A stretch of DNA of 64,000 nt, from assembly GCA_964426735.1 (NCBI GenBank), contig CAYRRP010000001.1, forward strand, positions 157,226 to 221,225, in the 5' to 3' direction. The notes beneath the pieces are model-generated. The model saw only the letters and a program-made list of their open reading frames with translations. It was not told the origin of the DNA and ran no database searches. Origin of the DNA: an uncultured Candidatus Saccharibacteria bacterium (GTDB lineage: Bacteria > Patescibacteriota > Minisyncoccia > Phycocordibacterales > DATDWN01). Positions 15,229 to 64,000 of this stretch are shown piece after piece. The position numbers and the translations under genes were made by a program. Every line of letters starts with the position of its first letter. The stretch's first letter is position 1.

Positions 15229-15729
15229 ATGGGAATAACCAAAAAGATACTACTTATTTTTATTGGATTAATTTTTGTCGTAGCAAGTGGATTTGGTGGT
15301 TTTTATGTAATACAAAAACTTTTTATTACAAAGGCAGACATATTAGATCAACCAAAAGTGAGTACGGTATCTACTATAGAAGTAGAACGTGATGTATATA
15401 ACAAAATTCCAAAAGATTTTCCTAAAAATCTCATTCCTGAAGATGATATAGTTTCAATTATCGAAAGTTTTACAGTATCGGATACCCCAGAAAGAAAGCA
15501 ATACACTGTACGTTATATTAGTAAAAAAAATATTGCTGAAAATCAAAAATATTTTGAAACGTATGTAGCAAAAACCCCTGGTTTTTCTCTGACAACAGAT
15601 TTTTTAACAAATTCAACAACATTCTTATCAATGGGCATACGTAACAAAAAAACAGAAATAAATATTACAGTTAATTTAAATCAACAGTACGGGTATATTG
15701 TTGATGTAACAATGTTGCAACAACTATGA
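15229..15729 (+). CDS. small membrane-anchored protein (N-terminal TM, about 130-aa extracytoplasmic domain); partner of downstream giant gene (TGA/ATG overlap)
   Basis: paralogous to 19371-19847 (shared VESF.V....QYT.RYI.K motif and architecture). Confidence 0.55.
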   Translation: MGITKKILLIFIGLIFVVASGFGGFYVIQKLFITKADILDQPKVSTVSTIEVERDVYNKIPKDFPKNLIPEDDIVSIIESFTVSDTPERKQYTVRYISKKNIAENQKYFETYVAKTPGFSLTTDFLTNSTTFLSMGIRNKKTEINITVNLNQQYGYIVDVTMLQQL

Positions 15730-24884: not shown

Positions 24885-25286
24885 TTATTCTGTTGTCACA
24901 CCGTCAAAGTCCGCCTCATTTTCCATCGCTTCAGTTTTTGTTGCTCGAACAATACCATCTTTGTGATGAGAAGGAGCGTAGATTGTGTAAAATTTTAATG
25001 ATTCAGAGTCTGATGTATTGATAACATTGTGTTCTGTCCCTGCAGGTACTACGATCGCATCACCATCAGTTACTTCATACTCAGTCTCACCTACCACCAC
25101 TTTTCCTTTCCCAGCATCAAATCGGAAAAACTGATCATTCTCCTCGTGTACCTCTGAGCCGATATCCTCACCAGGGAGCAGTGACATAAGCACAAGCTGC
25201 ATATGCTTTCCGGTATACAAAACATGACGAAAGTCTGTATTATCTTTTGTTAAATCTTCAATATGCCCAAAGTATCCTTTTTTCAT
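24885..25286 (-). CDS. cupin-domain protein
   Basis: cupin motifs G(X)5HXH-like ...EVHEEND...PAGTEHNVIN. Confidence 0.55.
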   Translation of the reverse strand: MKKGYFGHIEDLTKDNTDFRHVLYTGKHMQLVLMSLLPGEDIGSEVHEENDQFFRFDAGKGKVVVGETEYEVTDGDAIVVPAGTEHNVINTSDSESLKFYTIYAPSHHKDGIVRATKTEAMENEADFDGVTTE

Positions 25287-30050: not shown

Positions 30051-30821
30051 TTATTGTATTTCTAAAAATAATGGTAAGTGGTCTGAAACTATATCTGGTA
30101 AAACTTCAAAATTTTTTACTTCAATATCATTAGATGTCAAAATATAATCTGCAAATTTTTCTTCTTTTGGATAATGCTCACTTCGTGTAGAAGTGACTTT
30201 ATATTTCTTAACGAGGTTCACCATATCTTCCTCAAGCACAGCAATTGCATTACCATCATGTACAACATTAAAATCGCCACATAAAATATTTTTCTGTGCA
30301 CTACTTCCAAAAAATTCTTTAATCTTTTGAGACTGCTCCAGTCTTTCTGGCGTATCTTTTTTATGGGAGTTACGTTGCCATAGTCCGTGTAAATTTAAAA
30401 TAGTAAAAAATGAAGAGTCTGTATTTGCAATTTTTACCCACTGACACCGACCAGAAACAAGATCTCCACCTTTATGATACGGACTCTCCGGATGACTCCT
30501 GAAGCCACCATGATCAAGAACTTGATATTTTTTTCTTACAAAGATAACCTGCCCACAACCAACATCAGGTGACAACATCTCACCATGAAAATAGGATTCT
30601 TCTGGATCACGATATATGTAGGCATTAAAGTCACTCAAGATATTTTGTAGTTCAGAAAAAAGATTAAGCCTACCACCTTGAATGGGCGAAAATTCTGCAT
30701 CAGACCCAAACAAGCAATCTTGAAAACAAAACACATCAACATCATCTTTTTGTTTTGCGACAAATTGCATAAGAGGCTCAAACAACTTCCCTCCCCATAA
30801 GTTTAATGTGATGAGTTTCAT
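30051..30821 (-). CDS. endonuclease/exonuclease/phosphatase (EEP) family protein
   Basis: MKLITLNLWGG, LCGDFN, SDHLP motifs. Confidence 0.7.
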   Translation of the reverse strand: MKLITLNLWGGKLFEPLMQFVAKQKDDVDVFCFQDCLFGSDAEFSPIQGGRLNLFSELQNILSDFNAYIYRDPEESYFHGEMLSPDVGCGQVIFVRKKYQVLDHGGFRSHPESPYHKGGDLVSGRCQWVKIANTDSSFFTILNLHGLWQRNSHKKDTPERLEQSQKIKEFFGSSAQKNILCGDFNVVHDGNAIAVLEEDMVNLVKKYKVTSTRSEHYPKEEKFADYILTSNDIEVKNFEVLPDIVSDHLPLFLEIQ

Positions 30822-30861
30822 AATACTTATTTTCTTAAATTAATTTAAGAAAATTAATTTT

Positions 30862-32121
30862 TTATAAAAATTTTCTTAGAGATTTTCCTAATTTTTCAAT
30901 AACCCCCACAACAAGAGCATTGCCCATAATAAACGCTCTTTTTGTATCAGGAACTTTCTCACCATCAATCGTTAGTGCTGTATGGTTATCTGGAAACATA
31001 TTTAACCGCTCTAATTCTACAGGAGTAAGTCTACGTAATTTTCCGGACTTAGTTTTGATTACATGTTTAAAACGGGAAGGAGAACTTCCACCTTCACCGG
31101 TCACTATTGTTCTTGAAGGTTTATCTAATGAATCAGGAAAAATCATTGGCCCTTCAGCATAATGGTATTCAAAACCATCTTTTGATTTTCTTTCCTCTTT
31201 CTTACCTCCTTTTAGATACTCCCACTGTTTTTTATCTTTATCTTTTATGAAAAATTCTGGGGAAATTTTTGATTCATCATGAATAAGCACATCTTTGAGT
31301 AACATATGCTCACCCTCATAAACAGGTATTGTTTTTACAGTATGAACTTTTCCGTCAATCATAATACCTGTATTTTGAAAAGGACTAATTGTCGGTTTGT
31401 TGGAAGAAAAATTATCAGATATATCTTGCAAGTTTTCTCCTAGTTCAAAACTCTTTAATTCTACATCTCCTTCCTTTACTTTAAATGCGCTTGCAATGAC
31501 ACCAGTATTATAAATCCAATTACTTATATCTTTCTCTTTTTTAAGTAGATTAAAAACTTTACTACCTTTTTTATAACCTAAAATAAACACTCTTCTTCTT
31601 CTTTGAGGTAGCCCATAGTCTGCAGCATTAATTACTCGCCACTCAACAATATAACCTAACTCAGAAAGTGATGCCAACATCACGGCAAAATCTCGACCTC
31701 TTTGTTTTGCAGGTGACTTTAATAAACGATCAACGTTTTCTAGCATCAGGAAATCTGGTGCCTTTGTCTTTTTTTTCTTTAAAATATTATAAATTGACCA
31801 CCAGAGGACACCTTTTTTCCCATAAATACCTTCCGCTTGATTTAAAGTTCTTGCAACAGAATAATCTTGACAAGGAAATCCACCGACAAGCAAGTCGTGG
31901 TCTGGAATCTGTTGAAAATCTTTTTCGACGACTTCTTGAATATCTTCACAAGAGTGACCTTCCGAACCAAAGTTTCTTTTATATATTTGAGAAGCGTATT
32001 GTTTAGTGACTCCTGGCTCCCACTGACTACTCCATATAGTCTTAAATTCAGCAGTGGCTTCGAGCCCCAAACGAAAACCACCTACACCAGCAAATAACTC
32101 CACGACTCTTATTTTTTTCAT
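30862..32121 (-). CDS. DNA (cytosine-5)-methyltransferase (type II R-M, M subunit)
   Basis: motif I ELFAGVGGF, motif IV GGFPCQDYS, ENV, QRRRRVFILG. Confidence 0.9.
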   Translation of the reverse strand: MKKIRVVELFAGVGGFRLGLEATAEFKTIWSSQWEPGVTKQYASQIYKRNFGSEGHSCEDIQEVVEKDFQQIPDHDLLVGGFPCQDYSVARTLNQAEGIYGKKGVLWWSIYNILKKKKTKAPDFLMLENVDRLLKSPAKQRGRDFAVMLASLSELGYIVEWRVINAADYGLPQRRRRVFILGYKKGSKVFNLLKKEKDISNWIYNTGVIASAFKVKEGDVELKSFELGENLQDISDNFSSNKPTISPFQNTGIMIDGKVHTVKTIPVYEGEHMLLKDVLIHDESKISPEFFIKDKDKKQWEYLKGGKKEERKSKDGFEYHYAEGPMIFPDSLDKPSRTIVTGEGGSSPSRFKHVIKTKSGKLRRLTPVELERLNMFPDNHTALTIDGEKVPDTKRAFIMGNALVVGVIEKLGKSLRKFL

Positions 32122-32158
32122 ACCGCAATATTATCAGATAAATATAAGTTGATCAAGC

Positions 32159-33553
32159 TTAATCTTGTTTGTTTTCTATGGCTTGTTGAATATATTTCGC
32201 ATTAAGCCAAAAACACCGCTTCATTTCTTGAGTTTTTTGAGGTGTCTCAACTGTATCTTGTGCATTTTTACCATGCGGACGTACATGTGCAACACTACTA
32301 TCTTTAATTTTTGGTAGCTTTGTGTACTCACCATCACGTATACAGTCAATTGTTTTTTGCCATACACGTTCAGCCTCGGGAAGGTCTTTTGTTGGAAAAT
32401 TCCAAAATGTCACTTTTTTCAAAATAATATCATCGTTATTTTTTTGTTTTTGAAACACTACAAATAAAAACTTCTTTGTTTCCAATTGTAAATGAAAGTC
32501 TGACATCACTTCTTCCTCATCATCTTGCCATACTTGAGTAATTAAATCTTTGTAATCAAAGGCAGGAAACGAGATTGATTCTTTTAAAGTCCCTGTATGT
32601 TCTAAAGTAATTACTTTAAGAGTTATGTTTGCCTTATCAAACTCCTCAATTTTATCTGAATCTACATCAAGAATTCGGTTTACAATAAGTCTTTTATAGT
32701 TTTTTGCTATATTTGTAAGATTATCATCTAGATTAGAAAGTATCTCCTTATCTGTTTTGCCAATAAACCTAGAAAATCTTTCTTTAATAGTATCTTCTAT
32801 TGTTTCGATTCGTCTTTGTTTTTTAAAAATTGAATCAGTATTTGATTTATTTCCCAGTAGTTTCGTTTGAACAATATAGTTTATATATTGCTGTTTAAAA
32901 GAAAAAGCTCGTGGTTTTGCTGGTATACGTGCACCACCTGGTTGGTCTCTAACAGTACGACTATTTGCTGCTTTAGTACAAGCACCTAAATAATAAGTGT
33001 CTCCTTCTGATAACAAATGAGCTTCACCTCGTTTAATTTTAGCAACAATATACTCCCAATCTTTTTGAATTTGAAAAACGTCTTCGTTAGAAAGGTTTTC
33101 TATTAGATTAAGTAAGTGAACAAACTTAAATTTATAATCCAAAATACTTTGACTCTGCACCCACAAGTAAAACATAAGTAGCAAGGTTTTGTTTTTTTTC
33201 AAAAATGAACTACTTTCCCAAGTTTCTTTTACTATTTCATCATAGTTTATCATCGAAAACACAAGACGTTCCTTTGAAGAATACTGATTTTTAGTATGTT
33301 TTTTAAGAGGTGTAGTTTTTAACTCAACTCCAGCAATATTAAAATCTGGTTGATTTAGATTGTCATTTTTCTTACCAAAAATATAAAATTCAATTAATTG
33401 ACCAAGGAGACCTTTCTTTTTATCTTTATGTGTAAAGATTTCTTTCTCAATAGTCTCGATTTCTTCTTTGGATACAACCTCACGTAAAGATTTATTTAGT
33501 ATAATTTTCGCTTGTTCTAGAACTTGTTCTTTTGTTTGGTAATCTTTATTCAT
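32159..33553 (-). CDS. Sau3AI/MutH-family restriction endonuclease (type II R-M, R subunit; GATC-type by family)
   Basis: KGLLGQLIEFYIFG...QPDFNIAGVELKTTPLK matches MutH/Sau3AI catalytic D..E.K region; 464 aa similar to Sau3AI; adjacent C5-MTase. Confidence 0.7.
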   Translation of the reverse strand: MNKDYQTKEQVLEQAKIILNKSLREVVSKEEIETIEKEIFTHKDKKKGLLGQLIEFYIFGKKNDNLNQPDFNIAGVELKTTPLKKHTKNQYSSKERLVFSMINYDEIVKETWESSSFLKKNKTLLLMFYLWVQSQSILDYKFKFVHLLNLIENLSNEDVFQIQKDWEYIVAKIKRGEAHLLSEGDTYYLGACTKAANSRTVRDQPGGARIPAKPRAFSFKQQYINYIVQTKLLGNKSNTDSIFKKQRRIETIEDTIKERFSRFIGKTDKEILSNLDDNLTNIAKNYKRLIVNRILDVDSDKIEEFDKANITLKVITLEHTGTLKESISFPAFDYKDLITQVWQDDEEEVMSDFHLQLETKKFLFVVFQKQKNNDDIILKKVTFWNFPTKDLPEAERVWQKTIDCIRDGEYTKLPKIKDSSVAHVRPHGKNAQDTVETPQKTQEMKRCFWLNAKYIQQAIENKQD

Positions 33554-33563
33554 ACAACTTTTA

Positions 33564-34229
33564 TTATATATATGTTTTTATATCTCTAAAACCATTACTA
33601 TCTGCCGAAACAATAATATGACTAATAAGAGTAATGTCCAAAATTTTACTAGCGTATATTAATTTTTTCGTAATCTCAATATCATCATGAGATGGTTCTA
33701 AATCTCCAGAAGGGTGATTATGTGCAACGATGATTGAAGCAGCGTTGTTTTTAATAGCACCCTCAAATACTTCACGTGGATGAACCAGGCTTTCATTTAG
33801 AGTTCCAATTGAAATAATCTCTCTTTTTATTTCTTGATTTCTGCTATCTAAGTAAAAAACAACAAAATGTTCTTTCTTACTTCCTCTAATATCTTCCATC
33901 CGCTCCCAAACATCTTTTGGAGAAAGTAAGATAGAATTTTGCTTACCTTTTAGAATACGCTTTCCGAGTTCAAAACATGCCAGTATCTCACAAGCTTTAA
34001 CAACACCTAATCCATGAATCTTTTTTAACTCATCAATAGTAACATCTAAAATTCTTTCTCCTTCAAACTCTTTTAGAATTTTTTGAGATAGTTTTAAAAC
34101 ATTTAAATCTTTTGTGCCAGTACGAAGTAAGATTGCCAAGAGTTCTGAATCAGATAATTTCCCTGGACCATATTTTTCCAACTTTTCCCTTGGTCTATCT
34201 AATTTAGGAATGTCTTTGATTTTTAGCAT
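33564..34229 (-). CDS. radC: RadC-like JAB-domain protein
   Basis: HNHPSGDLEPSHDD JAMM motif, N-terminal HhH. Confidence 0.85.
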   Translation of the reverse strand: MLKIKDIPKLDRPREKLEKYGPGKLSDSELLAILLRTGTKDLNVLKLSQKILKEFEGERILDVTIDELKKIHGLGVVKACEILACFELGKRILKGKQNSILLSPKDVWERMEDIRGSKKEHFVVFYLDSRNQEIKREIISIGTLNESLVHPREVFEGAIKNNAASIIVAHNHPSGDLEPSHDDIEITKKLIYASKILDITLISHIIVSADSNGFRDIKTYI

Positions 34230-50006: not shown

Positions 50007-50951
50007 CTATTGTTTGATGTATTGAAGGGTAGAAGAAGCCAACGCTATCACATCAGAAAATCTTCCTTCAGTCGTCGAACCCAACACCACAATCGCAATC
50101 GGTCTTCCAAAACCCGCATCAAATACTACTGCAAGATTTCCACCTGCCAGATTTGTAAAACCAGTTTTTGATGCAATTACATTAGGAATATCACTCAACA
50201 TATTATTTGTATTTACTGCTTCATGTGAATACTGAGCTGAATATACTGTCTCCTTTGGAATCCGTGTTGCTTCGAGGAGTTCTGGATACTGCTCAAGAAT
50301 ATACCCAAACAAAAGTGCCACTTCTTCTGCAGACCCATACCCGCCAGCCAACGTATCACTCACATCAAGACCAGTTTCATTGGAAAAAGACATTGTTGAA
50401 AGTTGAAGGCGTTTTGCATACACATTCATTTCATCAATAAACTCTTTTCTTCCGAGTGTATAGTCTTTTGTGCCGAGTTTAAACGCACCTGCGACAGATG
50501 CGATTGAGCGCGCACCATCATTGGAAGAAACAATGAGTGAAAAATCAAGAAGGTCTGACAACGCAAACACTTCCCCATCTCGCAAACCTGTATCACCCTC
50601 TTCCACAAGAAATTCTTTTTTTACAGTGACCGTACTATATTGAGGAAGCAGTGTGCGCGCCACGAGTGCAGACATTACTTTAGTCAGTGATGCAAGAGGG
50701 CGTGAGACATTCGAATTTTTCTCTGAAATCACTTTTTGATCAACAATATCCCATACTATAAATGATTGTGCTTGAACTGCCGGAACCGAAAAAGAAACTT
50801 GGGTTGTAGATTTTTGATCTCCAGTGATCTGTTCCTTGCGTGCATCTACTTGGTATATCAAAAAACCGAGACCAACAATCAGTCCCACAAGAACAATATT
50901 AAAAGCAAATAACGGTATGCTTATATCGTTTTTTTCTGTCTGTTGTTCCAT
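50007..50951 (-). CDS. dacA: D-alanyl-D-alanine carboxypeptidase (S11 PBP5/6-like)
   Basis: SLTKVM (SxxK), SSND (SxN), KTG triad; N-terminal TM. Confidence 0.8.
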   Translation of the reverse strand: MEQQTEKNDISIPLFAFNIVLVGLIVGLGFLIYQVDARKEQITGDQKSTTQVSFSVPAVQAQSFIVWDIVDQKVISEKNSNVSRPLASLTKVMSALVARTLLPQYSTVTVKKEFLVEEGDTGLRDGEVFALSDLLDFSLIVSSNDGARSIASVAGAFKLGTKDYTLGRKEFIDEMNVYAKRLQLSTMSFSNETGLDVSDTLAGGYGSAEEVALLFGYILEQYPELLEATRIPKETVYSAQYSHEAVNTNNMLSDIPNVIASKTGFTNLAGGNLAVVFDAGFGRPIAIVVLGSTTEGRFSDVIALASSTLQYIKQ

Positions 50952-53964: not shown

Positions 53965-54657
53965 TTACTCTTCTACTGCTTTCATCTCTTTTTTAAAGTC
54001 TAACATTAACTTAGCCAATTTAAACTTTATCCCTTTTGAATTGTTATACACCAACACCTTCTTTTGTAATTCAGAATTAAAGTATGCAAACAATGGAACA
54101 TTAAGCTTATTCCATCCTTTCATTTTTAATAACGTCTCCGCCAGATCATCAGTAACTGTTGTTGCAACCGCAACTTCACTATCATCTGCCATCTCCTTAA
54201 AAAGCTCATATCCTGTTCGTATTGATTTTGGAGCAAAATGAGTTGGTATGAATATATCAAACTTATAGTAGCCAAATATAAACCCTTTTTCCATATCGCC
54301 CTTAGCGTATGTCGACTCCCATGCACCTCCTTCAAAAAAGTGATGTATGAAAGATTCTTTACTTATTGGCTCTCTATCTCTTCTACTTATAGCATCAGCA
54401 TACCATTGATATATAGTTTCAAAATCTTCAGATTTAAGAGAATTTTTTAAGATTTCAGTTGAAAGTAACTGTTCTGGAACAACATCAACCGATTCAGTTT
54501 CCTCTGTTGTATATTCTTTTTTGTCAAAAGAATTTGATTGGTTACCAAAACTAGGATCTAAATACTCTAAAGCATCATCATTTAAAACATCTTCTCCATC
54601 TGTTTGTTCATGGGATACTGTACTTGCAGAGACACTATCACTGGATTCAAATTTCAT
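53965..54657 (-). CDS. hypothetical protein (230 aa), acidic N-terminus
   Basis: ORF only. Confidence 0.4.
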   Translation of the reverse strand: MKFESSDSVSASTVSHEQTDGEDVLNDDALEYLDPSFGNQSNSFDKKEYTTEETESVDVVPEQLLSTEILKNSLKSEDFETIYQWYADAISRRDREPISKESFIHHFFEGGAWESTYAKGDMEKGFIFGYYKFDIFIPTHFAPKSIRTGYELFKEMADDSEVAVATTVTDDLAETLLKMKGWNKLNVPLFAYFNSELQKKVLVYNNSKGIKFKLAKLMLDFKKEMKAVEE

Positions 54658-54668
54658 ATTTTTTTATA

Positions 54669-56015
54669 TTAAAACCCATCCGTGCTTAACTTTTCATCAA
54701 TTCGGTTCATGTCTCGAGGGAACATTGTTGCTTCTCGAATATTTTTTAGACCCAAGATTTGCATAGTGATACGTTCTGCTCCAAACGCAAATCCTCCTTC
54801 AGGTGGTACCCCATACTTGAATGCCTGGAGAAACATCTTTATTTTCTCTGGATCCATATTCCACAACTCAACATGCTTCATGAGTTGGTCGTAGTTATTT
54901 ATTCTTCGTCCACCAGAAAGCCACTCAACACCTCGACAGATCAAATCCATACCCTCATTACATTCAGGATTTTCAGGGTTTGGGTACACATAAAAAGGTT
55001 TCTTTCGAGTCGGATATCCGTAAATAAATACGAAGTCAGAACCAGTCTCTTCTTTGATAATCTCTGATATCTCTCGTTCATCCTGAGGGTTTGTGTCTTT
55101 CTCCCCTCGCACATCACGACCAGATTTCTGGAAGATTTTTTCCTGAACTTCAGCAAGAGAAAGCGTTGGTGTTTTTTCAATCATCACCGGAAGAGTTGCT
55201 CCAAGAGTTTTGATATGATCAGCATTTTTGAGTTCTATTTGTTTCAAAATAAATCGAACTGTCTCTTCAGCCATATCTCGCACATCTTTCCATGAATCAA
55301 TAAACGCCATTTCAGCATCGAGAGAAACAATTTCCGTGAGATGTCGTGTGGTTGAAGACGGTTCTGCACGAAACACTTTGTTTACAGAAAAACATCGCTC
55401 AAATGCCGACATCACAATCTGTTTATACAACTGTGGCGACTGAGACAAGTACGCTTTTTTATCAAAATAATCTACCTGAAATACCTCTGCCCCACCCTCT
55501 GCGGTAGCAGGAGTAATCGAAGGAGCCTGGAATTCAAAGAAATTATTTCGCTTCATAAACTCTCTAAAAGAATCAATGACAGTCTCTTGTACTTTGAAAA
55601 TTGCCTGCAATTTTGGCTGACGCAACACAAGCGCTCGGTTGTCGAGCTCTGTAGTCAAATCAACATTGTACCCGTCGATAGACATATCAAAAGGAAGCGG
55701 CGCAGCTTCTGCAAGCACTTCCAACCCTGTCACCTCCAATTCAACATCTCCATTTACTACCCCTGCTTTAATATTTTTCTCTGGTCTTTTATTTACAATA
55801 CCCTGAATACTGAGCACCCACTCAAGACGCACATCTTTTATTGCACTGATTGCCTCAATATGATTTGGTAATACAACACACTGAACCATTCCTGTCATAT
55901 CACGAAAATCAAGGAAAACCATTTTTCCTTGGTCTCGGCGGACTGCCACCCAGCCTTTCACAAGCACTGTTTCTCCAATATGAGTATTGAGATCTTTAAT
56001 ATATGTTCGATTCAT
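54669..56015 (-). CDS. class IIb aminoacyl-tRNA ligase, aspartate- or asparagine-specific (AspRS archaeal-type / AsnRS)
   Basis: N-terminal OB fold (VLVKGWVAVRRDQGKMVFLDFRD), motif 2 FRAEPSSTTRHLTE, motif 3 GGFAFGAERITMQILG. Confidence 0.85.
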   Translation of the reverse strand: MNRTYIKDLNTHIGETVLVKGWVAVRRDQGKMVFLDFRDMTGMVQCVVLPNHIEAISAIKDVRLEWVLSIQGIVNKRPEKNIKAGVVNGDVELEVTGLEVLAEAAPLPFDMSIDGYNVDLTTELDNRALVLRQPKLQAIFKVQETVIDSFREFMKRNNFFEFQAPSITPATAEGGAEVFQVDYFDKKAYLSQSPQLYKQIVMSAFERCFSVNKVFRAEPSSTTRHLTEIVSLDAEMAFIDSWKDVRDMAEETVRFILKQIELKNADHIKTLGATLPVMIEKTPTLSLAEVQEKIFQKSGRDVRGEKDTNPQDEREISEIIKEETGSDFVFIYGYPTRKKPFYVYPNPENPECNEGMDLICRGVEWLSGGRRINNYDQLMKHVELWNMDPEKIKMFLQAFKYGVPPEGGFAFGAERITMQILGLKNIREATMFPRDMNRIDEKLSTDGF

Positions 56016-56119
56016 CCTGTTAGAAATAGAACATCACAGATAGCTTTCTGTAATTCCTAAAAGTATTAACTTGTAATAGTTCGACGTAGTACGTAGTGAT
56101 TTCCGTTATTTCTAACGGG
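56016..56119. repeat. second copy of the TIR-bounded element, exactly filling the HAD-gene stop / tRNA-ligase start gap
   Basis: see 44850-44950. Confidence 0.75.
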
Positions 56120-56149
56120 ATCATACGAAAAATATACCACACCAACACT

Positions 56150-56899
56150 CTAAAGCCAAGATTGTATCAGTTTTTCTGTATGAGCTGGGTTTTGTACTTT
56201 TATACATTCTACTCCTGTAGAAATCGCTGGGTAATCATTACCCCCAGGAAACAAGGCATCTCCTACAAATATAATCTCCGCATCAGTAAGTTTCAAATAC
56301 TCTTGCAATCGGTCAATCGCTGTCGCTTTATTTGCACCTAATGCAGTAATATCGATAGTCGTCATACCTCCAATCTGGATATTAAACTCTGGAATTATTT
56401 TTTTGAGCTCTCGCACTATTTCTTCTCGTTTTTTATGATCCGAATCCCAAAGAGCTTTTACAGACACAGGTGCATTTTGTCCGAGGGCAGAAAAACTCAT
56501 TTGTGAACCTCGATCTTCAAGACGCTCTCCGTATATTTCCGCAGGAAAAACAATCGGAACATGATTGAGTACTGTAGAAAACGCATGTGTAATTTTTTGT
56601 TTTTCTTCGGGAGTAAGGTCTCTTGAAAATACACATGTCCACATATTATTTTCATAAACATACAGACGTGTACCTGATGTTGGCATCAAATACAGATTAT
56701 GAAAACAATCATGATGAGTAAATGGAGCAAGTACTTGCTTTTCAAATTGAGGAAAATTGCCTCCAGAAATAATTGCTACTTTTTTAATACTCAATAACCG
56801 CTCTACAAGCTCAACCATCGAGTGAGTGAGTGATGATTTACTCTCTGCAAGAGTCGAATCTAAGTCAAATATAATAAGTTTTGCTTCTGTAAAAGACAT
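56150..56899 (-). CDS. HAD-IIB hydrolase, eukaryotic-type phosphomannomutase-like
   Basis: IIFDLDSTL motif I, K..IISGG, GDALFPGGNDY motif IV region. Confidence 0.65.
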   Translation of the reverse strand: MSFTEAKLIIFDLDSTLAESKSSLTHSMVELVERLLSIKKVAIISGGNFPQFEKQVLAPFTHHDCFHNLYLMPTSGTRLYVYENNMWTCVFSRDLTPEEKQKITHAFSTVLNHVPIVFPAEIYGERLEDRGSQMSFSALGQNAPVSVKALWDSDHKKREEIVRELKKIIPEFNIQIGGMTTIDITALGANKATAIDRLQEYLKLTDAEIIFVGDALFPGGNDYPAISTGVECIKVQNPAHTEKLIQSWL

Positions 56900-56906
56900 A
56901 GATATA

Positions 56907-58805
56907 TTATACCGTAAGCATAGCTAATAGTTTATCTAGTGCAATAGTCGCGACTCCGACTTTGTCATCTGCTGCACCATAATATATATACATCTCACCG
57001 TTTCGTTCTATAATCCCACATGGAAACACTACATGTGACACAACACCTTTTTGCTCATATTCTTCAAGAGGTTCAAAGAATGGTATAGCTGTTCGAGCTC
57101 TCACAATAGTAGGATTTTCAAGATCAAGAAGTACACATCCTACTCGATATGTCGTACTCGATGAGACACCATGATACAACACAAGCCACCCTTCTTTTGT
57201 TTTGATTGCAGGTGTCGATATACCAACCTTTCCTCCATCCCACATCCCTTTTCGTGGAGAAATGATGTCGATACATTCTTTAAGTACGATTTCATCAAGA
57301 CGTAAACTTGGTACAAAATCTGCACACACATGATTGCCAATACGATGGATAATCATATACGCACCACCGATAGGTTCTGGAATAAAGATAGCGTCTTTAT
57401 CAACAATCCCTTCAGGACTAATCGCCCGAGGCATTTCCCATTTGTCCCATGCTTGTGCAAGAAAATCTTGTATTGAAATCGAGGTTACAGCGACTCGAGG
57501 AGTTACACCATTGTAGGCTGTGTACAACATATAGATTGTATCTTCCACTCGTATCAACCGGGGATCTTCACACCCATGAGCACCACCATTTGGATTGAGT
57601 TCAAATGGCGCACGAGGAACATAAATCGGTGCGTCATGTCGATAATCTATCGACAACCCGTCACGTGACGTAGCATACCCGATTGTTGATATATTCCCTT
57701 CTGCAACCGCTCGATACAAAATATGAACAGTACCGTCAATATCAATCGCACCAGGGTTCAGTGTCCCTCCTGCTTCAAATACCATCCCTGGACGCGGAAT
57801 AATAATCGGATTACCAGCATATCGCACAATCGAATCCATATGTGGATTACTGATACTCTTCAGTAAATTTTCCAACGGTATGGTCGCTTTACAACAATGA
57901 GTATCTGATGCTCCATAATAGATAACAAAATTATCTTTTTCTATTTCTGCACCAGTTGGAAATGTAATATGTGCCACTTGTCCGATTTTTTCATAATATG
58001 CTTCAGGTACCATACACGGACCCTTTGTTCTCCCGATCACTTTTCGTGGATTCTCAAGATCAAGTAATACAATTTCAACACCAAATACCGGATTTCCATT
58101 GGTATAATTTTGGACATGTGAATATGCAACAAGCCACCCTTCTTTTGTCTTGACGGGTGTCGAACCGAGTTCCAAATGATCATACTCACTACGCCTCAAA
58201 GAAAGCTTATGTGCATCAAGCGTCTGCACCCACGTGTTCCAATAGGCTTCATTCCAGATATCTTCAACAGTATCAAATTCTGCATAACAAATATCTGAAG
58301 GTGGGATGTCGGTATGATATGACAAGAGTACCGCCACTTTTCCATTTATTTTTTCGGGAAACATAACCATCGCTTTCGCATTAAATGGAGTAACCTTGTG
58401 ACGTTCATCTACAGTTTTTAAGTCTTTAGTGAGTGCAACAGCTACCTTGATGTTATCCGCACCAAACGGCACATCACTCAGCGCTGTATAAAATACATAA
58501 TACGTATCTCCGAGTTTAGTGACTCGAGGATCTTCACATCCATATCGGTCATACGGTTCTTGTGGTGCCACCAACACACTTCGATCTGTATACAACACAC
58601 CATCAGACGACGAAGCACTCCCGATAACCGATACGCTCATATGAGGCTCTCGTAATTCATCTGGTTCTGACATTGCCCGATATACCAAAAATTTCTTATC
58701 ACCATGCTGTACTGGAGACGGATTAAATGCTGCATATGCTTCCCATGGATGTTCTTTCTTCGGAGACAACAGTGGATTGTACTCAAACCGGTTCAATGTA
58801 AACAT
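56907..58805 (-). CDS. tandem double GH130-family glycoside phosphorylase (β-mannoside phosphorylase-like)
   Basis: two YGCEDPRV / HGCEDPRL motifs each within a roughly 300-aa module. Confidence 0.65.
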   Translation of the reverse strand: MFTLNRFEYNPLLSPKKEHPWEAYAAFNPSPVQHGDKKFLVYRAMSEPDELREPHMSVSVIGSASSSDGVLYTDRSVLVAPQEPYDRYGCEDPRVTKLGDTYYVFYTALSDVPFGADNIKVAVALTKDLKTVDERHKVTPFNAKAMVMFPEKINGKVAVLLSYHTDIPPSDICYAEFDTVEDIWNEAYWNTWVQTLDAHKLSLRRSEYDHLELGSTPVKTKEGWLVAYSHVQNYTNGNPVFGVEIVLLDLENPRKVIGRTKGPCMVPEAYYEKIGQVAHITFPTGAEIEKDNFVIYYGASDTHCCKATIPLENLLKSISNPHMDSIVRYAGNPIIIPRPGMVFEAGGTLNPGAIDIDGTVHILYRAVAEGNISTIGYATSRDGLSIDYRHDAPIYVPRAPFELNPNGGAHGCEDPRLIRVEDTIYMLYTAYNGVTPRVAVTSISIQDFLAQAWDKWEMPRAISPEGIVDKDAIFIPEPIGGAYMIIHRIGNHVCADFVPSLRLDEIVLKECIDIISPRKGMWDGGKVGISTPAIKTKEGWLVLYHGVSSSTTYRVGCVLLDLENPTIVRARTAIPFFEPLEEYEQKGVVSHVVFPCGIIERNGEMYIYYGAADDKVGVATIALDKLLAMLTV

Positions 58806-58823
58806 AAAGTAAATAATTAATGA

Positions 58824-59903
58824 TTAAGAACGAAGAGAAGTAAGTAATTCGGATAATGATGTTTGTGCCACGCAAATATGTTTATCTCCTCCACCATAGT
58901 AGACATGCAACACATCCCCTTTCACTACCGCACCGCATGCATACACCACACCTGGTTTCCAGTCATTTTCATACCATTCATCTGAGGTAAGTATTGGCTG
59001 AGCAGATCGTCCAATAATCCGAGTAGGATTATCTAGATCAAGAAGCATTGCTCCAAGCTTATACCGATGATCACCATGACTGCATGCATGGTAGAGCAAC
59101 AACCAACCTTCTTTAGTTTTAATTGGTGGTGGACCAGCTCCACGCATCTGATTATCCCAAAATTCTTCTCTCCCTGGCTGAGGTCCTGGTTTTCGTGGAC
59201 TACTGATTGGGGTCAGTCGTGCATCGAGAGAATCGACATACTCAATCATAACTTCAGGTACAATACTATGTATAATTGCAAATTTTCCATGTATTTTTTC
59301 AGGAAAAAGTACCCAATTTTTATGCACTGCTTTCTCTGGAGAAATGAGAACTGGTTCTGACCAATTCCAACGCTTATGCACAAGATCGTGTTTTAAAATA
59401 GAAATCACACCGATACGGATTGAACCCCAATTATCAAATGCACTAAAGGTTACGTAGATTCGTTCATCAATACAAACCATGCGAGGATCTTCACATCCAC
59501 CAAAACTTCCCCCTGAGGGATACAGGATAGGATCATAACGCTGTGGAGTTAGTGAATATTCCGGATACCCTATTGAAAATACAGGATAATTTTCATGATC
59601 ATCAAAATGTAAACCATCCTTACTTGATGCATATCCAAGACGAGACACTCCATCTCCTCCTACTGCTCGGTAGATAATATGCACTCTTCCATCATCATCA
59701 GTAAATGCGGTAGGGTTAAAGGTTTCTCCTGCTTGCCAATCCACATACGGTCGAGGAGAGAGTAGTGGATTTTTGGAATGTCGTTGTAAGTCAGTATGTT
59801 TTTTATTTTTCTTCTTTTGAAAAGACTCCGGCTTTGTGGTGATATAAAAAAATACAATGATTGTAAGAAAAAGTATGAGTCCGATTGTATAAAAGAAAAT
59901 CAT
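58824..59903 (-). CDS. membrane-anchored GH130-family glycoside phosphorylase
   Basis: GGCEDPRMV motif; N-terminal TM. Confidence 0.65.
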   Translation of the reverse strand: MIFFYTIGLILFLTIIVFFYITTKPESFQKKKNKKHTDLQRHSKNPLLSPRPYVDWQAGETFNPTAFTDDDGRVHIIYRAVGGDGVSRLGYASSKDGLHFDDHENYPVFSIGYPEYSLTPQRYDPILYPSGGSFGGCEDPRMVCIDERIYVTFSAFDNWGSIRIGVISILKHDLVHKRWNWSEPVLISPEKAVHKNWVLFPEKIHGKFAIIHSIVPEVMIEYVDSLDARLTPISSPRKPGPQPGREEFWDNQMRGAGPPPIKTKEGWLLLYHACSHGDHRYKLGAMLLDLDNPTRIIGRSAQPILTSDEWYENDWKPGVVYACGAVVKGDVLHVYYGGGDKHICVAQTSLSELLTSLRS

Positions 59904-59906
59904 ATA

Positions 59907-60263
59907 TTATGTTTGTACACGTCCATATTTATCATCAACTCGCACAATATCATCATCATCAAACTCACCTGTTGATATTTCGAGAAATACAAGTGGAGTA
60001 TGTCCCCCTTCTGCACGATGGTGTATCCCTGCATCGATAGTATACGTATCACCCTCATGAGCTTCAGTACGAACATCACCTACAGTCACAAAACCTGTCC
60101 CTTTTACTATGACCCAAAATTCACTTCGATGTTTATGATGCTGGAGACTGAGCGCTTCACCGGGATTGACTGTAATCATCTTTACAGTACATGAGGTGTT
60201 CCTCACAAACTCATCAAAAAATCCCCATGGTCGCTTATACTGTTGTGGAGAAAGTACGTTCAT
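59907..60263 (-). CDS. cupin-type mannose-6-phosphate isomerase (type II PMI C-terminal-domain-like)
   Basis: RPWGFFDEF...VKMITVNPGEALSLQHHKHRSEFWVIVKGTG. Confidence 0.6.
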   Translation of the reverse strand: MNVLSPQQYKRPWGFFDEFVRNTSCTVKMITVNPGEALSLQHHKHRSEFWVIVKGTGFVTVGDVRTEAHEGDTYTIDAGIHHRAEGGHTPLVFLEISTGEFDDDDIVRVDDKYGRVQT

Positions 60264-60344
60264 AGATGCCTATAGTATAGCTCCAAAAACACAGGTTTAA
60301 ATACTACACCTGTGTATAACTACATAATTCTTTTTTATACAACC

Positions 60345-61298
60345 TTAGTACAATTTTACTCCTATCACTTCCTTCACTTCTTCCATCTTCTTAATTGCTT
60401 TTTCTCGAGCACGTTGACCACCTTCTTTGAGCACATCAAGTACATAGTCCGTATCAGATGCGAGTTGAGCGCGTTTTTCACGCAGCGGTGTAATAAATGC
60501 TTTCAAGTCAACAATGAGAGCTTCTTTAAGAGCTTTATACTTTCCTTTGTTCTCTTCATACAAAGATGCTAATTCTGCCTCTGTTTTGAAAAGCTTATGT
60601 ATTGCGTATACGTTTTCAGGAACATCACCACCTGAATCAGTGACGATAGACATTACTGCTTTTTCTATCTCCGCGTCACTTGCGAAAAGTGGAATCGTGT
60701 TTCCATAACTTTTTGACATTTTTCGTCCATCAATACCCGGAACAACCGCAACTTCAGAAATAATTTTTGCTTCAGGAAGTTTCAAAACATCAGATGCAAA
60801 TACATGATTAAACTTAAGAGCAGTATCACGTGTATATTCAACGTGTTGTTTCTGGTCTTGTCCTACAGGTACTACATCAGTATCGTACAGTAAGATATCA
60901 GCAGCCATAAGCATAGGATAATTAAATGTCCCCACAGAAATCTCTTTATCTTTTGCCTCAGCATCTTTGTATGCATGAGCTCGCATCAAATACGGCATCG
61001 TAGTGATCGTATCAAAAATCCACGCAAGCTCAGTGTGTTCAGGAACATCAGATTGTTTAAAGATGAGTGATTTTTGTGGATCAAGTCCAAGCGCTAAATA
61101 GTCGAGGGCAAGATCAACAATCTGCTGTTTCATTTCTGTTTTATCTTGAGTCAAGTTGAGCGCATGATAATCAGCAATCATATACATTGCAGTATATTCA
61201 TCCTGCATATCTACAAACTGCTTCATTGCACCAAAATAATTACCAATATGTGGTCGTCCTGTTGGTTTTACTCCTGAAAGTAAGATTTTTTTGTTCAT
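60345..61298 (-). CDS. trpS: tryptophan--tRNA ligase
   Basis: KPTGRPHIGNYFGA (HIGH), KMSKS present. Confidence 0.9.
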   Translation of the reverse strand: MNKKILLSGVKPTGRPHIGNYFGAMKQFVDMQDEYTAMYMIADYHALNLTQDKTEMKQQIVDLALDYLALGLDPQKSLIFKQSDVPEHTELAWIFDTITTMPYLMRAHAYKDAEAKDKEISVGTFNYPMLMAADILLYDTDVVPVGQDQKQHVEYTRDTALKFNHVFASDVLKLPEAKIISEVAVVPGIDGRKMSKSYGNTIPLFASDAEIEKAVMSIVTDSGGDVPENVYAIHKLFKTEAELASLYEENKGKYKALKEALIVDLKAFITPLREKRAQLASDTDYVLDVLKEGGQRAREKAIKKMEEVKEVIGVKLY

Positions 61299-61375
61299 AG
61301 AAAAATCATATCATGAATCAATTAAAAATTCATATTGAGCAAGTCGTAAAGCAATAGTATACTAGGTACACTTAT

Positions 61376-63193
61376 ATGATAAAAAACGACTCAACAAAAG
61401 ACAATAATTCATTATCAAACTTTACAGATTTAATAAAAAATTCGTGGCGCATTGGAAAACTTGTATGGGAACAAACTCCTTGGATACTTTTTTTCATGCT
61501 CATATCTACACTCAGCATAGGTGTGTTACCAGTATTTGCATCCCAAGCATTGGGAACTTTAATTGATACGATTATTGAAGCTATTAAACTCAGTTCGATT
61601 GATACCGTATATCCCGCACTCTTTTGGTTTGCAGTATTTACCACACTCCCATCACTGATCCGAGTATTGTACCGTTTCCTTGATCGGCACTTATTTCTTC
61701 GCCTGCAGGATTTTCTGGACATACTCATGCTCAAAAAAAGAGGTTCGTTTGATATCTCTCAATATGAAGACACTACATTTCAAGACAGACTTCAACGTGC
61801 ATTCAATAATGGTAACTATCCTCTCATCGCTGTAGCTGATGGACAGCTTCGCAATCTAGAAATAATCGCGGGAATTATTGTAAGCTCTATAGCTACCATC
61901 GCAATTGATTGGAGAGTATTTCTGATAGTTCTCGTCACTTCAATACCTGAATTTTGGGTAGAAATCAAATACGGCAGCAAGCTCTGGTCAATCAATATGA
62001 AGAACAGTTACGAACAACGTCGCTATCAAGACTTACGACGCTTCTTTACTTCACGTACCTCTGTTATAGACGGTAAACTCAGTCAAGTCGGAGATAAGTT
62101 TTTGCAAGAAATAAAGAAAATTTTGACAGGATTCACTGACGAGCAACTTTCAAGTGAAAGCTGGAAAAGTTCAGCAAAACTTTTTACTAGTGCATTTAGC
62201 ATGATTGGTTTATTTATTGGGACCACCCTTATCGTCCAAGAATCTATAGCCGGAGCAGTGGCTATCGGTACTGTAGTGTTTATGTTTCAAACTTTAAGTC
62301 GTATCAACGGCTGGGCATCAAGTATGCTTTCAAACACTGCTCGTCTACTCGAACGCAACCTATATGTTACAGATATTTTTGGTGTATTAGATGAAAAACC
62401 GACAATGATGCAGCCAGAAAAACCTGTAGCATTTGAACTTTCAAATGCACCAACAATTGTATTTGAAAATGTTTCTTTTGCATACCCATCGGAACCAGGC
62501 AAAACAATTCTAAAAAATATAAATCTCACCATCAAACCTGGAGATAAACTTGGTCTTGTTGGAAACAATGGGTCAGGAAAATCAACAATTGTACGACTTC
62601 TTCTCCGTATCCACGACCCAATCTCTGGAAGAATTACTGTAAACGGAATTGACTTACGAGATATTAATACTGAAGACTGGTGGAAATATTTAGGTGTACT
62701 CTTGCAAGATTTCACTACATACAACTTTACCGTTAAAGAATCTATTGCCGTAAGTGAACAAGGAGAAATTAATCAAGAAAGAATCGAAAAAACTGCTCAA
62801 CAAAGTACAAGTATGAGTTTTATTCAAGATCTAAAAGATACCTATGACCATATGATTGGAGTGGAGTTTGGTGGCATAGAACCATCAAAAGGCCAGCGAC
62901 AAAAACTTGCAATCGCTCGTGCACTCTACAAAGGTACTCGACTACTTGTACTCGATGAACCTACCGCATCAATCGATGCAGAATCAACAAGTACAATCTT
63001 TAGAGAATTAGAAAATCTTGATAAAAATACTTCTGCAATACTTATCTCACACAACTTCGCAACCATAAAAAAAGCTGACATGATTGTGGTATTAAAAGAC
63101 GGAGAAATTATAGAACAAGGTACACACGAAGAACTTCTTAATCTCAAAGGAAACTACGCAGACGCATATCAAAAACAAAAGAGTGAGTTTTAA
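61376..63193 (+). CDS. ABC transporter permease/ATP-binding fusion (exporter type)
   Basis: 6-TM N-terminus, Walker A GNNGSGKST, signature PSKGQRQK (LSGGQ-like), Walker B LLVLDEPTAS. Confidence 0.85.
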   Translation: MIKNDSTKDNNSLSNFTDLIKNSWRIGKLVWEQTPWILFFMLISTLSIGVLPVFASQALGTLIDTIIEAIKLSSIDTVYPALFWFAVFTTLPSLIRVLYRFLDRHLFLRLQDFLDILMLKKRGSFDISQYEDTTFQDRLQRAFNNGNYPLIAVADGQLRNLEIIAGIIVSSIATIAIDWRVFLIVLVTSIPEFWVEIKYGSKLWSINMKNSYEQRRYQDLRRFFTSRTSVIDGKLSQVGDKFLQEIKKILTGFTDEQLSSESWKSSAKLFTSAFSMIGLFIGTTLIVQESIAGAVAIGTVVFMFQTLSRINGWASSMLSNTARLLERNLYVTDIFGVLDEKPTMMQPEKPVAFELSNAPTIVFENVSFAYPSEPGKTILKNINLTIKPGDKLGLVGNNGSGKSTIVRLLLRIHDPISGRITVNGIDLRDINTEDWWKYLGVLLQDFTTYNFTVKESIAVSEQGEINQERIEKTAQQSTSMSFIQDLKDTYDHMIGVEFGGIEPSKGQRQKLAIARALYKGTRLLVLDEPTASIDAESTSTIFRELENLDKNTSAILISHNFATIKKADMIVVLKDGEIIEQGTHEELLNLKGNYADAYQKQKSEF

Positions 63194-63237: not shown

Positions 63238-64000
63238 TCACATGCACACATTACTACCATGTTGCATATATTCATTCCATTGTGCCCGAAATTCAGGCGA
63301 ACTGGCGAGTAACTCATTCAACTTACCTACACCCACAATCTTCCCTTTGTCGAACATGTAAATTCGATCAAAGAGAAAAAGAAGATGAAGCCGATGAATT
63401 GACGAGATAATAGTCTTCCCTTTAAAACCATTGAAGATATTCTGATACACTTGCATTTCTGTAGTGCTATCTAGACTACTTGTAGGTTCATCAAGAAGGA
63501 CAATATCCTTACCTTCACACGCAAGGAGCCCGCGAGCAAGTGCAAGACGCTGCTGCTGACCACCTGACAAGTTTACTCCTTTCTCGTTAATCAATGAATC
63601 AAGACCGTTCGGAAGACTTGAAATCACGTCAGTAAAACAAGCCATTTCCGTAAACCGATTGACGACCAACTGATCATAGTCTGCACCCAGTGTGATATTA
63701 CCGAGGATTGTAGTTGAAAATATATCTGGATTTTGCGGCACAAGTGCGATTGCTCGACTGATACCTTCAAAACCTTCTTCGATACGTACCCCATCGACAC
63801 TCAAGTCGAGAGTTTGCGGTGGACACAACCCCCTCATTGCTTTGAGGAAAGTTGTTTTACCACTTCCACTTCCACCCACGAAAGCAATCTTCGCTCCTCG
63901 AGCAATTGAAAGTGACACATCATCAAGATGCATGTCCCCTTCTTCGCCATGGTAAGAGAAGGATAGATTGTTGATGTCTAACTTCTGCCACCCTGCAGGC
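63238..64000 (-). CDS. ABC transporter ATP-binding domain (C-terminal part; gene continues beyond window end)
   Basis: Walker A GGSGSGKTT, LSGGQQQR, ILLDEPTSSLD; frame open to 64000. Confidence 0.8.
   Translation of the reverse strand, partial: PAGWQKLDINNLSFSYHGEEGDMHLDDVSLSIARGAKIAFVGGSGSGKTTFLKAMRGLCPPQTLDLSVDGVRIEEGFEGISRAIALVPQNPDIFSTTILGNITLGADYDQLVVNRFTEMACFTDVISSLPNGLDSLINEKGVNLSGGQQQRLALARGLLACEGKDIVLLDEPTSSLDSTTEMQVYQNIFNGFKGKTIISSIHRLHLLFLFDRIYMFDKGKIVGVGKLNELLASSPEFRAQWNEYMQHGSNVCM

Follow-up and report, generated by a model that had tools for sequence, protein, structure and literature searches.

In the gut anaerobes Bacteroides and Ruminococcus, an established route takes mannose-1-phosphate (Man-1-P) released by GH130 enzymes to mannose-6-phosphate (Man-6-P) by a phosphomannomutase (PMM), and to fructose-6-phosphate (Fru-6-P) by a phosphomannose isomerase (PMI), with a saving of one ATP (PMC4264767). 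Within GH130, a phosphate-binding Arg/His pair is the criterion for phosphorylases, and a Glu beside the proton donor together with a Lys at the position of R150 in UhgbMP marks β-1,2 specificity (PMC7660257; the latter in its Table 2). The same Lys is Lys199 in PMC4599007, in which GH130 enzymes without the basic residues act as β-1,2-mannosidases. Here we describe a four-gene cassette (positions 56150–60263, minus strand) encoding three GH130 modules, a putative mutase of the HAD superfamily, and a small cupin, found in a 64,000-nucleotide stretch (the window) of contig CAYRRP010000001.1 from an uncultured bacterium labeled Candidatus Saccharibacteria. On balance, we think it probable that one module (C) is a phosphorylase acting on a β-1,2 linkage and feeding the mutase and then the isomerase, within a cytoplasmic complex that is partly tethered to the membrane.

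The four open reading frames (ORFs) are separated by 3, 18, and 7 nt, and lie where the initial annotation, made from the sequence alone, had placed them:

59907..60263, minus strand: cupin of 118 amino acids (aa) with a type-II PMI C-terminal domain (PF01050, 88.9 bits)
58824..59903, minus strand: GH130 module A, 359 aa, predicted to be membrane-tethered (PF04041, 129.8 bits)
59835..59903, minus strand: predicted N-terminal transmembrane anchor of module A, residues ~1–23, followed by KKKNKKH (from hydropathy)
56907..58805, minus strand: double GH130 protein, 632 aa, modules B and C (PF04041, 309.4 bits in two stretches)
57840..58805, minus strand: GH130 module B, residues 1–322 of the 632-aa protein (from residue pattern and alignment)
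56907..57839, minus strand: GH130 module C, residues 323–632 of the 632-aa protein (from residue pattern and superposition of the AlphaFold2 (AF2) model)
56150..56899, minus strand: HAD-IIB (C2B cap) α-D-phosphohexomutase of the PMM/atypical α-phosphoglucomutase (α-PGM) family, 249 aa (PF08282, PF03332, TIGR01484)
60274..60301, minus strand: weak candidate promoter, TTTAAA-16-TATACT, within the 81 bp that separate trpS from the cupin gene

In the scheme that we favor, module C would catalyze the reversible phosphorolysis of a β-1,2-mannoside by phosphate (Pi) to α-Man-1-P and a shortened acceptor, the HAD-IIB mutase would interconvert Man-1-P and Man-6-P, and the mini-cupin would interconvert Man-6-P and Fru-6-P, with net flux perhaps running from phosphorylase to isomerase. 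The conversion of Man-1-P to Fru-6-P downstream of a GH130 phosphorylase, as first proposed, is plausible for this cassette, with the qualification that the sugar preference of the mutase is read from its gene context.

Active sites of the three GH130 modules

All three modules belong to GH130, as initially assigned: both proteins pass PF04041 (Glyco_hydro_130; cutoff 26). Against the NCBIfam equivalogs BManbPhaseBMBP (NF052550; cutoff 450) and BtaManbiosPhlase (NF050092; cutoff 550), the double protein scores 373 and 305 and module A 183 and 148, respectively; by these models the cassette proteins are related to the two enzyme groups, yet are not equivalogs of either. The nearest solved structures for all modules are β-1,2-specific enzymes (Teth514_1789, 7FIP; Teth514_1788, 9FJ8; Lin0857; Uhgb_MS; E down to 9e-54), module A matching Teth514_1788 best (E 5.6e-46). 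Superposed on Teth514_1788/1789, the AF2 model of the 632-aa protein (pLDDT 87.8) gives TM-scores of 0.87–0.90 and an rmsd of ~2 Å.

Reference sequences were reconstructed from HMMER alignments and then aligned with the modules and their orthologs (n = 113 for A; n = 121 for B and for C). The register was checked on Uhgb_MS, the chain numbering of which reproduces the residues E136-D137 (GIEDCR), K184, R202 (FHR), and R242 (CARVG) of PMC12814180; UhgbMP D104 and R168/H231 were equated with Uhgb_MS D137 and R202/H261 from shared motifs. The catalytic Asp that serves as proton donor is invariant in every module (D139 in A, 113/113; D92 in B, 121/121; D414 in C, 121/121), as is the β-1,2 Glu/Lys pair (E138/K195 in A; E91/K144 in B; E413/K470 in C).

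The phosphate-binding Arg/His pair (Uhgb_MS R202/H261) is present in module C only, as R488/H545 in all 121 orthologs. R365, E413, D414, K470, H487, R488, K526, H545, and D613 are all invariant in this module (121/121) and correspond to the ‘GP beta-1,2’ pattern of PMC7660257 (Table 2), so that residue rules predict a phosphorylase. The initial annotation had all three modules releasing Man-1-P; the active-site alignment narrows this to module C, as A and B are without the pair in every ortholog.

Module A has a short L2 loop, and R79, E138, D139, K195, H212, R254, H272, and D340 are invariant (113/113). At the site of Uhgb_MS R202 it carries Ser (89 orthologs), Gly (11), Thr (10), Asn (2), or Ala (1), never Arg or Lys, and the His is kept; the equivalent of R242 is hydrophobic, with the invariant Arg254 one position on and often an Arg or Lys one position earlier. 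In module B, R43, E91, D92, K144, and D301 are invariant (121/121). Thr or Ser occupies the R202-equivalent and Ser, Ala, or Cys the H261-equivalent, the latter preceding invariant H230 and Q232. In the region of R242, module B reads D209-[H/Q]-x-E212-x-G214, with D209, E212, and G214 invariant, where phosphorylases have Arg or Lys and Gly; a B-specific insertion (residues 180–199), predicted to be helical, precedes this motif. Module B matches phosphorylases at E 1e-19 to 1e-17, vs. 2e-6 to 2e-3 for GH130_3 hydrolases.

Pairwise identity among A, B, and C is 32–39%, and each is 34–40% identical to the Thermoanaerobacter enzymes. Being as divergent from one another as from those enzymes, the modules are ancient paralogues, each under its own strong purifying selection, rather than decaying copies. 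The possibility that B is a dead pseudo-domain was rejected, as B keeps its sugar-binding and catalytic residues invariant, and truly degenerate GH130 modules that lack the Glu-Asp occur in related double proteins; the contrast with the latter speaks for a still functional active site in B.

In Uhgb_MS, the substitution R202A lowers phosphorylase activity 16-fold (PMC12814180), and in GT108 the equivalent Arg-to-His change abolishes it (PMC10913872). A decision tree for GH130/GT108 predicts that a short L2 loop combined with only three phosphate contacts makes a transferase with little or no phosphorylase activity, that four contacts make a bifunctional enzyme, and that a carboxylate base in the pocket makes a hydrolase (PMC12814180). 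Efficient phosphorylase activity is thus not expected of A and B, which are without the canonical phosphate site, although their mannose-binding and proton-donor machinery and β-1,2 Glu/Lys pair are retained. Module A, with its short L2 loop and no Arg, would most likely be transferase-leaning or otherwise non-phosphorolytic, perhaps an auxiliary enzyme that acts on a membrane-proximal substrate at the cytoplasmic face. Module B, with an invariant Asp/Glu pocket, would most likely be a hydrolase-leaning or trimming enzyme that uses water as acceptor.

The predicted mutase and isomerase

For the cupin, the best-supported assignment, predicted from both sequence and model, is a PMI (Man-6-P ⇌ Fru-6-P), which agrees with the initial annotation. 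PF01050 (MannoseP_isomer; cutoff 23.6) covers residues 9–111, the protein aligns to positions 358–467 of the TIGR01479 (GMP_PMI) model, which is its PMI end, and homologs are annotated as ‘phosphomannose isomerase type II C-terminal cupin domain’. Across 50 homologs, P12, W13, G14, S39, Q41, H43, R46, E48, W50, H82, and E95 are invariant, as are the motifs RPWG and S-x-Q-x-H-x-x-R-x-E-x-W; the definition of the type-II PMI motif reportedly goes back to Jensen and Reeves in 1998. The AF2 model (pLDDT 90.9) has the Thermococcus mini-cupin PMIs 7ZVM/7ZVY among its top fold matches, and its structural neighbors are mostly generic small cupins at 14–25% identity. Compared with bifunctional GMP/PMI enzymes (AlgA/XanB type, TIGR01479), the cupin matches their C-terminal PMI part and is without the guanylyltransferase domain. 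Like the Thermococcus proteins it is a stand-alone cupin of ~110 aa, at an identity of only 14–19%. We found no activity data in the literature for this stand-alone bacterial cupin subfamily. A second small cupin in the window (24885–25286, minus strand; 133 aa) matches Cupin_2 only, without the PMI signature, and adjoins genes for a TspO/MBR membrane protein and an HI0933-like flavoprotein.

The HAD protein had been annotated as a eukaryotic-type PMM-like enzyme. Its grouping with phosphohexomutases rather than phosphatases stands: it passes PF08282 (Hydrolase_3; 51.2 bits, cutoff 20.9), PF03332 (PMM; 36.2 bits, cutoff 22.4), and TIGR01484 (HAD-IIB; 66.2 bits, cutoff 41.8), carries the DxD motif as D12-L-D14, and its solved-structure matches are all phosphomutases (α-PGM or PMM). 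The eukaryotic-type label did not hold, as the best match is 4BND, the atypical α-PGM (APGM) of L. lactis (E 4.7e-37, 131 bits), ahead of PMMs at E 1.4e-14 or weaker (≤57 bits). Aligned together with 70 orthologs, the protein shares 33.6% identity with 4BND and 25.9% with the PMM 6I5X; it has 20 conserved columns in common with APGM only and seven with PMM only. The cap residues K21/Q141/K148 are the same as in L. lactis APGM, at positions where 6I5X has Arg in all three; we take these positions to be those of R21, R134, and R141 in PMM2, which bind the substrate phosphate. Asp183, in ‘TSIDIT’, is PMM-like (‘ISFDVF’) and unlike APGM (‘TTINGF’). Among HAD-type PMMs, activity on mannose as well as glucose phosphates is common (PMC8808168, Table 1). 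The protein is a phosphohexomutase of the right superfamily, and the name ‘PMM’ is supported by operon context, not by sequence. It has the HAD-IIB C2B fold and the DxD nucleophile motif in common with L. lactis APGM/PgmH (4BND) and with eukaryotic-type PMMs; its operon context is one of mannose rather than glucose.

Conservation, topology, and gene neighborhood

Homologs of the double GH130 protein number in the thousands; the top 120 are all full-length, 59–90% identical, and named as Zambryskibacteria, Taylorbacteria, Minisyncoccota, Paceibacterota, or Parcubacteria. Relatives occur in at least 141 Patescibacteria species, by a scan that took one genome for each GTDB species. For synteny, 80 loci were kept out of the 141 genomes with a relative; these are Patescibacteria or uncultured-bacterium metagenome-assembled genomes (MAGs), complete chromosomes included. 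In 59 of the 80 loci all four genes keep the order cupin–A–BC–HAD on a single strand; most of the exceptions are contigs that end within the cassette, and the flanks vary between lineages. The same order and strand amid differing flanks places the arrangement far beyond chance. Module identity is at least 50–60% across orders. The cassette is a native conserved operon of Paceibacteria-type lineages, and is among the most conserved non-informational gene sets around this locus. As a conserved, lineage-wide core feature, it is no less compatible with endogenous metabolism than with scavenging. A horizontal-transfer island was rejected on the grounds that the GC content of the cassette (0.39–0.40) equals that of the rest of the window.

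The label Candidatus Saccharibacteria is borne by many of the matching MAGs, although their cassette proteins are 60–90% identical to those of Paceibacteria/Parcubacteria MAGs; it looks generic or wrong in this third-party (TPA) series of assemblies. In one lineage (L001/L002, 7891–9465) a 524-aa HisKA/HATPase_c sensor kinase is encoded between the double GH130 and the HAD protein, and may regulate the cassette.

The membrane anchor proposed for one GH130 protein is a conserved transmembrane helix of module A, a 19-aa window with hydropathy ≥1.6 being present in 110 of the 113 orthologs. Ahead of the helix the mean number of Lys and Arg residues is 0.05, against 3.97 over the 15 residues that follow; by the positive-inside rule, this bias predicts an N-out/C-in orientation with the catalytic domain in the cytoplasm. 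A secreted form of module A was rejected, as there is essentially no Lys or Arg ahead of the helix and about four behind. No signal sequences were seen in the double GH130, HAD, or cupin proteins, and all catalytic domains are predicted to be cytoplasmic.

Fusion proteins were surveyed by an exhaustive search of 50%-identity representatives, with modules typed by key residues. Many double-module GH130 proteins were found, among which pairs of a B-like and a canonical module recur at 39–50% identity. One single chain of 971 aa (P0370) comprises an A-like, a B-like, and a canonical module, arranged as in the gene order; another (P0383, 697 aa) joins a transmembrane helix, an A-like module, and a canonical GH130 module; and a third (P0377, 645 aa) has the reversed order, canonical followed by B-like. 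By Rosetta-stone reasoning, these three fusions suggest that module types A, B, and C act together as one assembly, and in the favored scheme they would operate as one complex. In some lineages (P0154, P0165, P0166, P0177, and others; ~600 aa), module A has an N-terminal domain of ~290 aa in place of the transmembrane anchor, as in Wolfebacteria CP011209.1 (L079, 6021–7889). This extra domain has no Pfam match, and is a degenerate GH130-like propeller without the Glu-Asp (hhalign probability 98%, E 2.4e-13).

The sole recurrent neighbors are a Peptidase_S11 carboxypeptidase, pilin genes, and opposite-strand type II secretion system (T2SS) E/F genes. Downstream of the cassette, the Peptidase_S11 D-Ala-D-Ala carboxypeptidase occurs in 47, pilin (N_methyl) in 43, and T2SS E/F in 18–19 of the 80 loci. 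The S11 gene of the window (50007–50951, minus strand) is 5 kb off, past scpA/scpB, a GNAT gene, and AspRS. No recurrent importer, secreted glycanase, kinase, or guanylyltransferase was found near the cassette across the 80 loci, and the 64-kb window is without a glycolytic gene, sugar importer, secreted glycanase, sugar kinase, or nucleotidyltransferase. Two nucleotidyltransferase regular expressions, G-x-G-[TS]-R-[LFMW]-x-x-[LIVA]-[TS] and GG-x-G-x-R-[LFM]-x-P, gave zero matches in the six-frame translation of the window and in 4124 ORFs of the 80 loci (~1.1 Mb), which is a weak, neighborhood-only test. The scavenging of host glycans suggested in the initial annotation finds little footing here, given the predicted cytoplasmic domains and the lack of a linked importer or secreted glycanase.

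In the window, the cassette is flanked by trpS (60345–61298) and an AspRS-type gene (54669–56015); between the latter and a GNAT acetyltransferase gene lies an ORF for an acidic 230-aa protein without a Pfam match (53965–54657, minus strand). In a scan of the region for promoters and terminators, counts (those of promoter-like sites included) did not exceed those of shuffled sequence, and no terminator-like sites were found between the four genes. An Rfam scan of 55500–61800 at E ≤ 1 gave no match. An exporter-type ABC pair (ABC_membrane and ABC_tran; 61376–63193, plus strand, and 63238–63933, minus strand) adjoins trpS upstream of the cassette; such a pair is present only in close relatives (7 of the 80 loci; L085, 4888–8528), and is probably outside the system. 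Elsewhere, the window encodes ribosomal proteins, aminoacyl-tRNA synthetases, dnaK/dnaJ/grpE, murG-ftsW-mraY, large surface proteins, and many orphan ORFs. Two proteins of 1201 and 551 aa (15726–19331 and 19853–21508, plus strand), with CARDB, PA14, Ig-like, and InlB B-repeat domains, are likely to function at the surface or in adhesion, and adjoin ORFs without a family match. A low-GC island (30051–34229, minus strand; GC 0.31–0.34 vs. ~0.39 elsewhere in the window) encodes an Exo_endo_phos nuclease, a C-5 cytosine DNA methylase, a MutH/Sau3AI-like endonuclease, and RadC, and is probably a restriction-modification locus.

Alternative readings and comparison with known systems

Several points weigh against the phosphorylase–mutase–isomerase reading and the roles suggested for A and B. 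Arg254 of module A, with the Arg or Lys that frequently precedes it, could rebuild an anion site. Module B, by its match scores, is outside the known hydrolase clade, and hydrolase activity there would be an independent invention; moreover, a cytoplasmic hydrolase would yield free mannose, for which the neighborhood shows no kinase. The α-PGM of L. lactis is said to have been found specific for glucose phosphates by Neves and colleagues in 2006. In GT108, the presence of the Arg is insufficient for phosphorylase activity (PMC10913872), which makes the residue logic imperfect in both directions.

Among the alternatives, the one that survives best is an endogenous β-1,2-mannan (mannogen-like) reserve or turnover cycle with a self-made substrate, which we regard as a tentative but serious possibility. 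In its detailed form, held just as tentatively, Fru-6-P would be converted via Man-6-P to Man-1-P (and on to GDP-mannose, GDP-Man) to supply module A as a tethered β-1,2-mannosyltransferase, module C would recover Man-1-P, and module B would trim or prime. Such a cycle suits a self-contained cassette with no recurrent importer or secreted glycanase, conserved as a core feature across orders, and the fusions of A, B, and C, the three active-site types of which would serve synthesis, trimming, and phosphorolysis; on these grounds, the endogenous cycle fits at least as well as scavenging. The decision tree of PMC12814180 predicts that A is transferase-leaning and C a phosphorylase, and all β-1,2 GH130 phosphorylases tested there also accept GDP-Man; against this, the authors consider that the transferase side-activity of GH130 is possibly irrelevant in vivo. 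The GH130 modules also match the Leishmania transferase MTP-2 structurally, a similarity at the level of fold only (E 3e-9, TM-score 0.66, 14–16% identity), and no GT108 chains were among their solved-structure sequence matches at E ≤ 1e-5. Counting against the cycle, a Man-1-P guanylyltransferase is absent from the window, the regular-expression search of the neighborhoods was negative, and in the literature searched we found no report of β-1,2-mannan in Paceibacteria-type bacteria, nor of GDP-mannose in Patescibacteria, Parcubacteria, or the candidate phyla radiation (CPR).

The reading of the initial annotation in its literal form, in which three phosphorylases would serve the catabolic, ATP-saving scavenging of imported (host) β-mannosides to Fru-6-P, is unlikely. 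It has in its favor the established GH130–PMM–PMI logic of the gut anaerobes, the precedent of Teth514_1788/1789, which work in sequence on long and short β-1,2 chains (PMC4264767), and the -1 and +1 subsite residues, which are kept in all modules; His272 and Arg254 of module A might also bind phosphate. Opposed to this are the absence of the phosphate Arg from A (113/113) and of the Arg/His pair from B (121/121), the reduction or abolition of phosphorylase activity by Arg loss in two related systems, and a cassette that, unlike the Thermoanaerobacter cluster, is unaccompanied by an importer or glycanase.

Slightly less likely still is a role in biosynthesis only, whereby Fru-6-P would be converted via Man-6-P to Man-1-P and the GH130 enzymes would build a β-mannosylated envelope glycoconjugate at the cytoplasmic face, for later export. 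The membrane tether of module A would suit this, as would the frequent cell-wall neighbors (Peptidase_S11 as above; murG/ftsW/mraY ~10 kb off in the window) and the exporter-type ABC genes that adjoin the cassette here and in its close relatives. The phosphorolytic site of module C is nevertheless fully conserved, and cellular Pi normally pushes such enzymes toward phosphorolysis; in addition, the ABC exporters are unconserved (a similar gene in 7 of the 80 loci), and no flippase or polyprenyl-linked step is evident. Least likely is mere adjacency without a single pathway, in which the HAD protein would be a housekeeping α-PGM (Glc-1-P ⇌ Glc-6-P) and the cupin a general sugar-phosphate isomerase: the nearest relative of the HAD protein (with its K/Q/K cap residues) and the generic structural neighbors of the cupin would allow it, but the genes are nearly contiguous and co-linear in 59 of the 80 loci over deep divergence, the cupin is well above the PF01050 threshold, and Asp183 of the HAD protein is PMM-like.

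Patescibacteria/CPR represent a large share of bacterial diversity, and their carbohydrate physiology is barely known; cassette-bearing organisms are reported to have incomplete upper glycolysis. In the literature on GH130 or mannoside phosphorylases in Patescibacteria, Parcubacteria, or CPR, we found only a passing mention of two intracellular GH130 enzymes in one Microgenomates genome. If the phosphorylase–mutase–isomerase reading is true, the cassette would provide a kinase-independent entry or exit between a β-1,2-mannoside pool and Fru-6-P. An endogenous cycle, if true, would represent an unsuspected carbon reserve in ultra-small cells and the first bacterial counterpart of the Leishmania reserve, with one glycoside hydrolase family supplying the transferase, hydrolase, and phosphorylase for one polymer.

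The gut-anaerobe pathways depend on β-1,4-specific GH130_1/2 enzymes with a Tyr/Arg pair, whereas the cassette has the β-1,2 pair. Those pathways use PMMs of the α-D-phosphohexomutase superfamily and type-I PMIs, from loci with transporters and secreted glycanases. The cassette differs in its HAD-type mutase, its 118-aa cupin PMI, and its lack of linked uptake genes.

The Thermoanaerobacter enzymes Teth514_1788/1789 match all modules best in both sequence and structure, at an identity of only 34–40%; both systems have a short L2 loop, the Glu/Lys pair, no signal peptide, and adjacent GH130 paralogues. The Thermoanaerobacter cluster includes an ABC importer, a GH5 enzyme, a Man-1-P guanylyltransferase, and a GT4 enzyme, and is without PMI or PMM (PMC4264767); the cassette is the reverse. 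Unlike Thermoanaerobacter, the cassette has one module anchored in the membrane and two joined in a single protein, and the phosphate site is missing from two of the three.

In Leishmania, mannogen metabolism relies on the GT108 enzymes MTP1–7, which include strict GDP-Man transferases and dual transferase/phosphorylases, and which differ at the phosphate-pocket Arg and share out synthesis and phosphorolysis between them (PMC10913872, PMC12814180). Leishmania GT108 and the cassette have in common paralogue families, a five-bladed propeller, and the same catalytic mechanism, the Leishmania members acting on β-1,2-mannan. GT108 is a separate CAZy family; in contrast to module A of the cassette, the MTPs are soluble, and the strict transferases of GT108 have His at the Arg position, where A has Ser, Gly, or Thr. 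The GH130_3 mannosidases BT3780 and BACOVA_03624 resemble module B in that the proton donor, the adjacent Glu, and the Lys are kept, the basic residues are gone, and the pocket contains carboxylates (PMC4599007); unlike GH130_3, many members of which have a signal peptide, module B lacks one, falls outside that clade by its match scores, and is joined in one protein to a predicted phosphorylase. Modules A and B offer natural, strongly conserved test cases for the debate over phosphorylase, transferase, and hydrolase activity in GH130/GT108 (PMC12814180, PMC10913872), their phosphate pockets having been rebuilt in two different ways around an intact sugar site. Set against these systems, the pathway is ordinary in outline; its architecture and distribution are new.

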